Shown here piece after piece: positions 58,602-60,336 of a DNA stretch of 64,000 nucleotides. The notes below the pieces were generated by a model. The model searched no databases. It saw only the letters and a program-made list of their open reading frames with translations, and was not told where the DNA came from. The position numbers and the translations under genes were made by a program. The DNA comes from Mobula hypostoma (lineage: Eukaryota). Numbering within the stretch: position 1 is the first letter of the stretch; every line of letters begins with the position of its first letter. Location: contig NC_086097.1 in assembly GCF_963921235.1 (NCBI RefSeq), positions 31,622,001-31,686,000 on the forward strand, in the 5' to 3' direction.

Positions 58602-60336
58602 AACCACAAAATACTCTGCAGATGCTGGGGTCAAAGCAACACACACAACACGCTGGAGGAACTCAGCAGGTCGGGCAGCATCCATGGAAATGAACAGTCA
58701 ACATTTCGGGCCGAGACCCTTCGTCAGGACTGAAGAGGGAAGGGGCAGAGGCCCTATAAAGAAGGTAGGGGGAGGGTGGGAAGGAGAAGGCTGGTAGGTG
58801 CCAGATGAAAAACCAGTAAGGGGAAAGATCAAGGGGTGGAGGAGGGGATAGGCAGAAAAGGTGAAGAAGGAATAGGGGAAAACAGAATGGGTAGTAGAAG
58901 GAGGTGGAACCATGAGGGAGGTGATAGGCAGCTGAAGGAGGGGGCAGAGTGAAATGGGGATGGGGGAAGGGAGGGGGAGGGAATTACCGGAAGTTGGAGG
59001 ATTCAATGTTCATGCCAAGGGGCTGGAGACTACCCAGATGGTATATGAGGTGTTGCTCCTCCAACCTGAGTTTAGCCTCATCGTGGCAGTAGAGGAGGCC
59101 ATGTATGGACATATCCAAATGGGAATGTGAAGCAGAGTTGAAGTGGCTGGCAATCGGGAGATCCTGTCTGTTGTGGCAGACAGGGCGGAGGTGCTTGACG
59201 AAGCAGTCCCCCAATCTGCGTCGGTTTTCACCGATGTAGAGGAGGCCGCACCGGGAGCACCGGATGCAATAGATGACCTCAACGGACTCACAAGTGAAGT
59301 GTTGCCTCACCTGGAAGGACTGTTTGGGGCCCTGAATGGTGGCAAAAGAGGAGGTGGAGGGACAGGTGTAGCACTTAGGTTTGCAGGGATAAGTACCAGG
59401 TGGGAGATCCATGGGGAGGGACGAGTGGACCAGGGAGTCATGGAGGGAATGATCCCTGTGGAAAGTGGAGAGGGCTAGAGAGGGAAAGATGTGCTTAGTG
59501 GTGGGGTCCTGTTGAAGGTGGCGGAAGTTGCGTAGGATAATGTGCTGGATCCAGAGGCTGGTGGGGTGGTAGGTAAGGACAAGGGAAACTCTGTCCCTGT
59601 TGTGGTGACAGGAGGATGGGGTGAGGGCTGAAGTGTGGGAAATGGAGGAGATGTGGGTGAGGGCATCATTGATGACGGCAGAAGGGAAACCATGATCCTT
59701 AAAGAAAGAGGACATTTGAGATGTCCTGGAATGGAAAACCTCATCCTGGGAGCAGATGTGGCGGGGACGGAGGAACTGGGAATAGGGAATGGCATTTTTG
59801 CATGTGGCAGGGTGGGAAGAGGTATAGTCGAGGTAGTTATGAGAGTCAGTGGGCTTATAGAAGATGTTAGTGGACAGTCTGTCTCCAGAGATGGAGACCG
59901 AGAGATCGAGAAAGGGGAGAGAAGTGTCCGAGATGGACCAAGTGAATTTGAGGGCTGGGTGGAAGTTAGAAGCAAAGTTGATGAAATTGATGAGCTGAGA
60001 ATGGGTGCAGGAAGCAGCTCCAATGTAGTCGTCAATGTAGTGAAGGAAAAGTTGGGGAGCAATACCAGTATGGGTTTAGAGCACAGACTGTTCCACATAA
60101 CCAATGAAGAGGCAGGCATTGCTGGGGCCCATGCGAGTGCCCATAGCTACACCCTTGGTCTGAAGAAAGTGGGAAGAGCCAAAAGAGAAGTTATTAACTG
60201 TGAGTACCAGTTCCGCCAACCGGAGGAGGGTGGTGGTGGTGGGGAACTGGTGTGGTCTATTGTCCAGAAAGGCTTTCTTGATGGGGATTGTAAGTGTATA
60301 AGGATTGGACATCCATAGTGAAAACAAAGCAGTCGG
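58602..60336 (-). mobile_element. Penelope-like retroelement (same family), 5'-truncated, frameshifted
   Basis: RT motifs TMDVQSLYT and [37 protein letters not shown]; closely similar to the 11040-12495 copy. Probable 12-bp TSD GACTGTCA(G/A)CTT at 58590-58601 and 60337-60348. Confidence 0.92.
58694..58733 (-). ncRNA. Minimal type-I hammerhead ribozyme motif in Penelope pLTR (CpG-decayed copy)
   Basis: Minus strand reads UCAGUC CUGACGA AGGG UCUCGG CCC GAAAU GUU GACUGU: core CUGANGA/GAAA, stem II GGG/CCC, stem I CAGUC/GACUG. Confidence 0.8.

Follow-up and report, generated by a model that had tools for sequence, protein, structure and literature searches.

A probable decayed copy of the minimal hammerhead ribozyme of Penelope-like elements in a 64-kb stretch of the Mobula hypostoma genome

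We analyzed a stretch of 64,000 nucleotides (nt) from the Mobula hypostoma genome (GCF_963921235.1, contig NC_086097.1, forward-strand positions 31,622,001 to 31,686,000), hereafter the window, in which two copies of a Penelope-like element (PLE), named A and B, each carry a short hammerhead-like motif behind their open reading frame (ORF) (Table 1). The motif of copy B, our main subject, is very probably a mutated genomic copy of the minimal hammerhead ribozyme (min-HHR) of PLEs, coming from the non-coding region behind the gene for reverse transcriptase (RT) and GIY-YIG endonuclease. An initial annotation of the window had proposed a minimal type-I hammerhead on the sense strand of the element, downstream of this gene, and sequence, Pfam and protein alignment agree with it.

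The hammerhead motif and its carrier

Read 5' to 3', the motif of copy B consists of UCAGUC (5' strand of stem I), the CUGACGA box, an unpaired A, the stem II hairpin GGGUCUCGGCCC, GAAAU, GUU and GACUGU (3' strand of stem I), and that of copy A of ACAGUC, CUGACGA, A, GGGUUCUGGCCU, GAAAC, AUU and GAUCUA. The type-I core common to both can be written as CUGACGA, one extra A, a GGGUCUCGGCCY hairpin, GAAAC and GUY. The box reads as C3 U4 G5 A6 N7 G8 A9 of a hammerhead in each copy, and the consensus across copies, GAAAC GUC, supplies G12 A13 A14-A15.1 and U16.1-H17. Taken as a whole, the motif holds the catalytic boxes C3-A9 and G12-A14, the stem II hairpin, a short open stem I and A15.1-C15.2-G16.2-U16.1-C17 without insert. 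A single copy has helices I and II only: nothing stands past A-C-G-U in copy A or copy B, with zero loop, and a third helix would arise solely in a putative complex of two copies. That this loop-less segment could form helix III only between two copies had been proposed from the start, and the sequence confirms it. Occurrence of the motif in the window is far beyond chance: a loose pattern (CTGAYGA-N6-30-GAAAYRTY) matched four times, against a mean of 0.07 in shuffled sequences, and none of 100 shuffles gave four or more matches.

Both window hammerheads are probably inactive relics, decayed mainly through CpG transitions. In copy B, C15.2 and C17 have each become U (GAAAU and GUU), leaving a U-G at 15.2-16.2 and a U that is still allowed as H17; in copy A, the changes G16.2>A and C17>U are accompanied by mutations in stem II and in the 3' strand of stem I. 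The departures GAAAC>GAAAU and GUC>GUU/AUU fall at CpG sites, as had been annotated. Because core or pairing positions are lost and the host elements are 5'-truncated, both copies are in all likelihood inert. The 6-bp stem I first drawn for them (ACAGUC/GACUGU) turned out to be a composite of copies that exists in no single one: copy A combines an intact 5' strand with a mutated 3' strand, copy B forms 5 bp with UCAGUC, and the major genomic subfamily, UUAGUC/GACUGY, forms 4 bp plus a G-U.

The carrier was identified from its coding region. ORF A contains a GIY-YIG domain (Pfam, E 4e-5, 24.2 bits, cut-off 22.6) and aligns over 375 residues (46% identity, E 6e-112) with residues 431-804 of an 806-aa protein, beginning at the RT YIDD region and reaching the C-terminus of that relative, which itself has GIY-YIG and an RVT_1 match slightly below cut-off (29.4 versus 29.6 bits). 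ORF A therefore has the order of a PLE, RT and then GIY-YIG in a single ORF; the N-terminal RT part is missing because copy A is 5'-truncated. A Pfam search of the frame gave no match for ORF B itself. Between copies A and B, identity is 89.8% across 1,457 bp; as homology ends there, we consider both to be 5'-truncated. What had been called long Penelope copies are indeed Penelope-like, but they are 1.45-kb 3' ends and not full elements. The box starts 256 nt past the ORF stop in copy A (stop 12151-12153, box from 12409) and 257 nt past it in copy B (stop 58984-58986, box from 58727), within the 250-290 nt given originally for CTGACGA-stem-GAAA. At the genomic locus L008, the stretch 300-600 nt upstream of the hammerhead matches the end of the ORF of copy A. 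The hammerhead hence lies on the PLE coding strand, 3' of the RT/GIY-YIG ORF and ~100-130 nt ahead of the 3' end of the element.

The motif had also been located in a terminal repeat, with tandem pseudo-long terminal repeats (pLTRs) as a possible source of dimers. This location found no support: the window contains no pair of pLTRs, both PLE copies beginning within the ORF and lacking an upstream repeat. A pLTR-ORF-pLTR unit was absent from three genomic stretches with neighbouring motifs too, no genome-wide search for full-length elements having been made. For the window copies, the label of terminal repeat is inferred from the family.

Table 1. Features of the window, with positions counted from its first letter.
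Feature	Position	Strand	Basis
Decayed min-HHR of PLE copy B	58694..58733	-	sequence read directly, pattern search, alignment
Decayed min-HHR of PLE copy A	12403..12442	+	sequence read directly, pattern search, alignment
5'-truncated PLE copy A	11056..12497	+	copy A/B DNA comparison
5'-truncated PLE copy B	58638..60081	-	copy A/B DNA comparison
ORF A, 391 aa, RT YIDD region to C-terminal GIY-YIG endonuclease	10978..12150	+	Pfam and protein alignment
ORF B, 363 aa, stop to stop	58987..60075	-	PLE by DNA identity of copy B to copy A alone
3' tail of copy B past the hammerhead, conserved GATGCTGCC...CTGCTGAGTTCC block	58615..58693	-	BLAST and alignment
Head-to-head inverted repeat, arms 9693-9783 / 9785-9875	9693..9875		91-nt arms, 98% complementary, 1 nt apart
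Older decayed copy, 3/3 CpGs of CCCGAAACGUCGAC now CpA	49..150	-	BLAST
Older decayed copy, box mutated to CCAAAGA	10160..10258	+	BLAST
Older decayed hammerhead and tail, CUGAUGA ... GAAAC AUC AACUG	17235..17309	+	pattern and BLAST
Older decayed copy, CUGAAGC ... GAAAC GUU GACUA	32190..32317	-	BLAST
Older copy, stem II region enlarged, inverted tail piece before it	33527..33592	+	pattern and BLAST
Older decayed copy	33735..33815	-	BLAST
Older decayed copy, long tail complete	40129..40262	+	BLAST
Copy or fragment of the hammerhead-plus-tail block	50496-50567		BLAST
Partial decayed copy	63191..63242	-	BLAST

Support for the fold and alternative readings

Following published work on the family, the region 3' of the RT/GIY-YIG gene would form a pLTR when elements sit in tandem. 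As helix III is unable to close in one copy, the ACGU segments of two copies would together make up a common helix III of 4 bp, and the 'enzyme' half of each copy (box, stem II and GAAA) would use its stem I strand to bind the GUC-GACUG strand in the partner copy. The resulting double hammerhead would cut after GUC and so trim PLE transcripts; cleavage would probably be slow, and helped by the element's own protein or by other factors.

To assess the stems, we aligned 21 distinct copies (13 genomic and 8 from the window), all from one lineage and one genome, and scored ten pairs of stems I and II. Pairing was found in 80% of the 210 pair cells, against 14-49% when the partners were slid. The unpaired A after A9 (A19) is invariant in 21/21 copies; the 10.1/11.1 pair (columns 20/31) is G-C in 7, G-U in 13 and something else in one; and helix I amounts to AGUC/GACU plus U-G or C-G, with a sixth pair in only three of the 21. 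Support for the stems is conservation inside one repeat lineage, given the results on covariation that follow.

Several observations weigh against an active double hammerhead. The two checks put forward in the initial annotation, covariation of stems I and II and a match to Rfam hammerhead models, both came back empty. No covariation was detected in either stem (score 0.100 versus a shuffled mean of 0.128, reached by 494/500 shuffles) and only one pair in the alignment is changed on both sides, so that the covarying consensus families of published min-HHRs are not recovered from this one lineage of one genome. At gathering thresholds Rfam gave 0 matches in the window, hence no hammerhead model, and at E<=10 none of its 12 matches on four genomic loci with intact copies was a hammerhead. 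Such a miss would be expected if the Rfam hammerhead models include helix III. Nearest-neighbour energies for two 46-nt RNAs, which leave out tertiary contacts and proteins, were far less favourable for the double hammerhead (-12.7 kcal/mol) than for two monomer rods (-23.4) or an extended duplex (-31.7). The monomer rod pairs G5-A6-C7-G8 with C15.2-G16.2-U16.1-C17, hiding the core and the cut site. These energies agree with the weak in vitro activity described in PMC4209133 and with the need for protein in an Anolis PLE (PMC11167929). Finally, partners for a dimer in cis are scarce, with one same-strand pair among 100 core matches listed, which implies that cis dimers from tandem repeats are rare among present copies.

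Part of this evidence would suit another function, in which the element retains the hammerhead-like fold as a structured handle on its RNA (e.g. for RT/endonuclease binding or template choice) and self-cleavage in vivo is incidental or absent. The stability of the rod and duplex folds relative to the double hammerhead points in this direction, as does our breakpoint analysis (see below), where no cleavage-specific genomic footprint was found. So does the report on the Anolis PLE, whose hammerhead is cut only with added protein and is dispensable for insertion in vitro (catalytic mutants leave insertion unchanged), and for which that report describes no RNA-seq ends at the site (PMC11167929). 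Yet all catalytic-core positions are retained across the subfamilies of this genome, which is more than a binding hairpin needs, and according to PMC4209133 they are retained in PLEs of many phyla. Weak dimer cleavage and C3/G8 rescue have moreover been shown for other PLE hammerheads (PMC4209133, PMC11167929). We thus regard a pure handle as unlikely, although it deserves some weight beside the relic of a dimer-type ribozyme that we favour.

The scarcity of tandem same-strand partners among the genomic matches listed, together with the finding that an Anolis PLE RNA with a single copy needs protein to be cut (PMC11167929), could also mean that the motif cuts as an assisted monomer: a chaperone or the PLE protein would hold A15.1-U16.1 and C15.2-G16.2 in place, with no need of a second copy. 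This we find very improbable. Closing a helix of two base pairs with zero loop nucleotides is sterically impossible; in the published min-HHR constructs only dimer and trimer cut, the monomer being inactive, and the conserved 15.2-16.2 palindrome matters only for pairing between copies (both PMC4209133); and a dimer is also the predicted state of the Anolis protein (PMC11167929). As for a chance resemblance within a repeat devoid of ribozyme history, which the missing Rfam match and the lack of covariation would fit, its probability is negligible, since all 11 core positions occur together with stems I and II, the motif lies on the PLE coding strand in the 3' region that is the published pLTR location in tandem elements, and it bears further published traits (the unpaired base after A9, G10.1-C11.1 in the CCC variant and the palindromic 15.2-16.2).

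Abundance, decay and head-to-head pairs

The 25-nt core CTGAYGARGGGTCTCGGCCYGAAAC has at least 67,535 exact matches in the 3.48-Gb source assembly, against 0 for a reversed control. A search anchored on the flanks, and not on the core, retrieved 49,028 copies of one young subfamily, 100 of which were listed; here and below, listed rows were classified by hand tallies. CUGANGA, GAAA and ACGUH were all intact in 70 of these 100 copies, and the CUGACGA box was kept in 91. Damage in the other 30 affected the box (9), G12 (3) or ACGUC (18). As in the window, CpG-type transitions dominate, accounting for 21 of the 30: ACAUC in 11 copies, AUGUC in five, CUGACAA in four and CCCAAAAC in one. Another CpG change has turned position 11.1 from C to U in the major subfamily, leaving a G-U or, in a shifted register, an A-U.

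In alignments between subfamilies, the hammerhead block and the downstream tail block are alike and the sequence directly upstream differs. Contigs from runs of four organisms (A, B, C and J; run types guessed) cover the hammerhead block at L008:1497-1534 and part from the reference just before the 5' strand of stem I and just after its 3' strand (L008:1497 and 1534). From these contigs, the PLE hammerhead family or its close relatives may be common to several species. Within the same block, the sole difference at >=10% depth among those listed was T>C at position 11.1.

A number of copies carry a purine in place of C17 (L012, L013, L024, L025, L027, L029 and others), and GUG accounts for 11 of 13 such substitutions, the motif being otherwise intact. 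These GUG copies, uncleavable with G17, make up ~0.7% of the family and may be either a sub-lineage that went on amplifying or the product of recurrent changes.

Some 12 copies or fragments of the hammerhead-plus-tail block were found in the window by BLAST with a genomic copy. They fall into at least three subfamilies of different ages, with 74-96% identity to the young genomic copy. The inverted repeat of Table 1 is made of two young-subfamily copies, each broken within the CUGACGA box, so that neither arm is a complete hammerhead; both arms retain stem II, GAAAC, GUC, GAC and the tail (...GAAACGUCGAC...). Part of one arm (9755-9783) had been taken as an unmutated reference: it does keep stem II, GAAAC, GUC and GAC, but its box is broken. 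Across loci L001-L011 and the window copies we also observed two alternative 3' ends, a short one after ...GAUGUGUGU and a long one with ~35 nt more (...UCCAGCAUCUGCAGAAUUCC...), which recall the internal RT initiation and variable 'tail' of an Anolis PLE.

Close pairs among the 100 core matches listed were mostly head-to-head (9 in -/+ orientation), with two tail-to-tail (+/-) besides the same-strand pair mentioned above. In head-to-head pairs (the inverted repeat of the window, L002, L004/L005 and others genome-wide) the tails point outward and the 5' ends are joined, often as near-perfect hairpins. One of them, a perfect inverted repeat of two hammerhead halves (L004:1502-1592), scored 40-50 bits with the Rfam models of mir-515, mir-3158, mir-3127 and mir-874, the best Rfam hits there and all below gathering scores. 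Such matches to microRNA precursors may be the generic likeness of any long hairpin, which could still yield hairpin RNAs.

To look for a footprint of cleavage, we asked if copies start more often at G1.1, which directly follows the predicted cut, than at neighbouring bases. In many head-to-head junctions the sense arm does start exactly at G1.1. GACUG... preceded by R gave 1,128 matches and, with 30 loci resolved into 16 junctions, 13 C17 substitutions and one internal deletion, we estimate ~600 junctions there. The corresponding figures are ~95 junctions for a C17 start (423 matches without and 411 with a leading set letter; ~22/100 listed junction-like), ~85 for U1.4 (601 matches; ~14/100 listed junction-like) and ~195 for A1.2 preceded by Y (975 matches; 6/30 junction-like). 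As a control, GAC at G5 of the box gave 2,232 matches, ~92 of the 100 listed being junction-like, and one recurrent class, antisense ...CCCUUCGUCAG joined to GACGAAGGG..., represented ~45 of these 100 rows. Breakpoints per 10-nt window numbered 2,290 around the cut site, compared with 2,202 further downstream and 4,113 further upstream. Most junction partners are pieces of the element itself in antisense and have 2-4 nt (GA, GAC or GACU) in common with the sense arm.

We therefore rejected the G1.1 peak as a footprint of cleavage in vivo: the GAC at G5 gave more matches, the cut-site window has no excess of breakpoints and microhomology is present. Since the partners share GA, GAC or GACU and the G5 control behaves as it does, the peak is no evidence of cleavage; GAC microhomology, a by-product of the stem I and GUC motifs, explains it.

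One could go further and suppose that the genome holds one of the largest animal hammerhead repertoires, with ~10^5 near-intact min-HHRs in a very young PLE family that continues to be transcribed, and that cleavage in vivo contributes to the formation of the head-to-head copies; we consider this whole picture doubtful and give it little credence. Because of the size and youth of this family, the organism could suit studies of whether PLE hammerheads act in vivo and whether their cleavage has a role in retrotransposition, and the many perfect head-to-head hairpins may bear on genome stability or small-RNA production.

Comparison with known systems

The min-HHR was defined for the terminal repeats of metazoan PLEs by Cervera and De la Pena 2014, who argued that a dimeric hammerhead needs neither helix III nor loop 3 (PMC4209133). 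Every PLE of that study had it in its terminal repeats, among them Xena, Poseidon and Neptune of fishes, as well as those of coelacanth, Xenopus and reptiles. The traits described are an unpaired base after A9, a conserved G10.1-C11.1, a palindromic 15.2-16.2 and a helix I of 4-5 bp; many copies are solo, and pairs lie 100-700 bp apart on opposite strands. In the constructs reported, cleavage was absent from the monomer and weak in dimer and trimer. According to a review, hammerheads are a constant feature of PLE repeats and have a palindromic and extremely short stem III for which cleavage as a dimer is likely (PMC6765202).

The motif in Mobula shares these traits as PMC4209133 gives them: it is of type I, has only 15.1, 15.2, 16.2 and 16.1 in place of helix III and loop 3, with a C-G palindrome (GAAA-C-G-UC), an unpaired base between A9 and 10.1, G10.1-C11.1 in its CCC variant, and a short, open-ended helix I of 4-5 bp. 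It also occurs in a PLE non-coding repeat region on the coding strand, as dispersed solo copies and as close opposite-strand pairs, and the same dimer is proposed for it. Because all the sequence traits of PMC4209133 are present, the loop-less, dimer-type stem III is the standard published min-HHR and not a new variant, and the description of it as an extreme, obligate-dimer form has to be dropped. This work adds one more vertebrate genome with PLEs bearing the published dimer-type minimal hammerhead, and leaves existing knowledge unchanged.

There are differences of degree. Helix II has 3-4 bp and a 4-7 nt loop here, compared with 7-8 bp in the min-HHR of Schistosoma and 6 bp in that of Drosophila, and 11.1 is U in the major subfamily whereas G10.1-C11.1 is conserved in published min-HHRs (PMC4209133). 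What stands out is the size and youth of the family: at least 67,535 identical, intact cores with few differences, against ~4,000 copies in coelacanth and ~9,000 in Xenopus, numbers termed remarkable in the same paper, which stresses high sequence variability where we find it low.

The Poseidon hammerhead of Anolis carolinensis overlaps the start of the ORF (PMC11167929), unlike the copies described here, which lie past its stop; of the two, it is the Anolis hammerhead that has been studied biochemically. With the double hammerheads of newt satellite RNA and avocado sunblotch viroid (Forster et al. 1988), the copies share a monomer helix III that is too weak, and a proposed complex in which two copies share an extended helix III and cut each other's strand. 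Those RNAs have a short looped helix III and contacts between the loops of helices I and II, whereas no loop 3 and no evident tertiary contact are seen here. Animal non-LTR (long terminal repeat) retrozymes (PMC7229834; bioRxiv 10.64898/2026.07.22.740005) also carry hammerhead repeats related to the terminal repeats of vertebrate PLEs. Retrozymes are tandem arrays of short units; we saw no tandem array in Mobula, where the hammerheads sit instead in dispersed PLE 3' ends and in head-to-head pairs.

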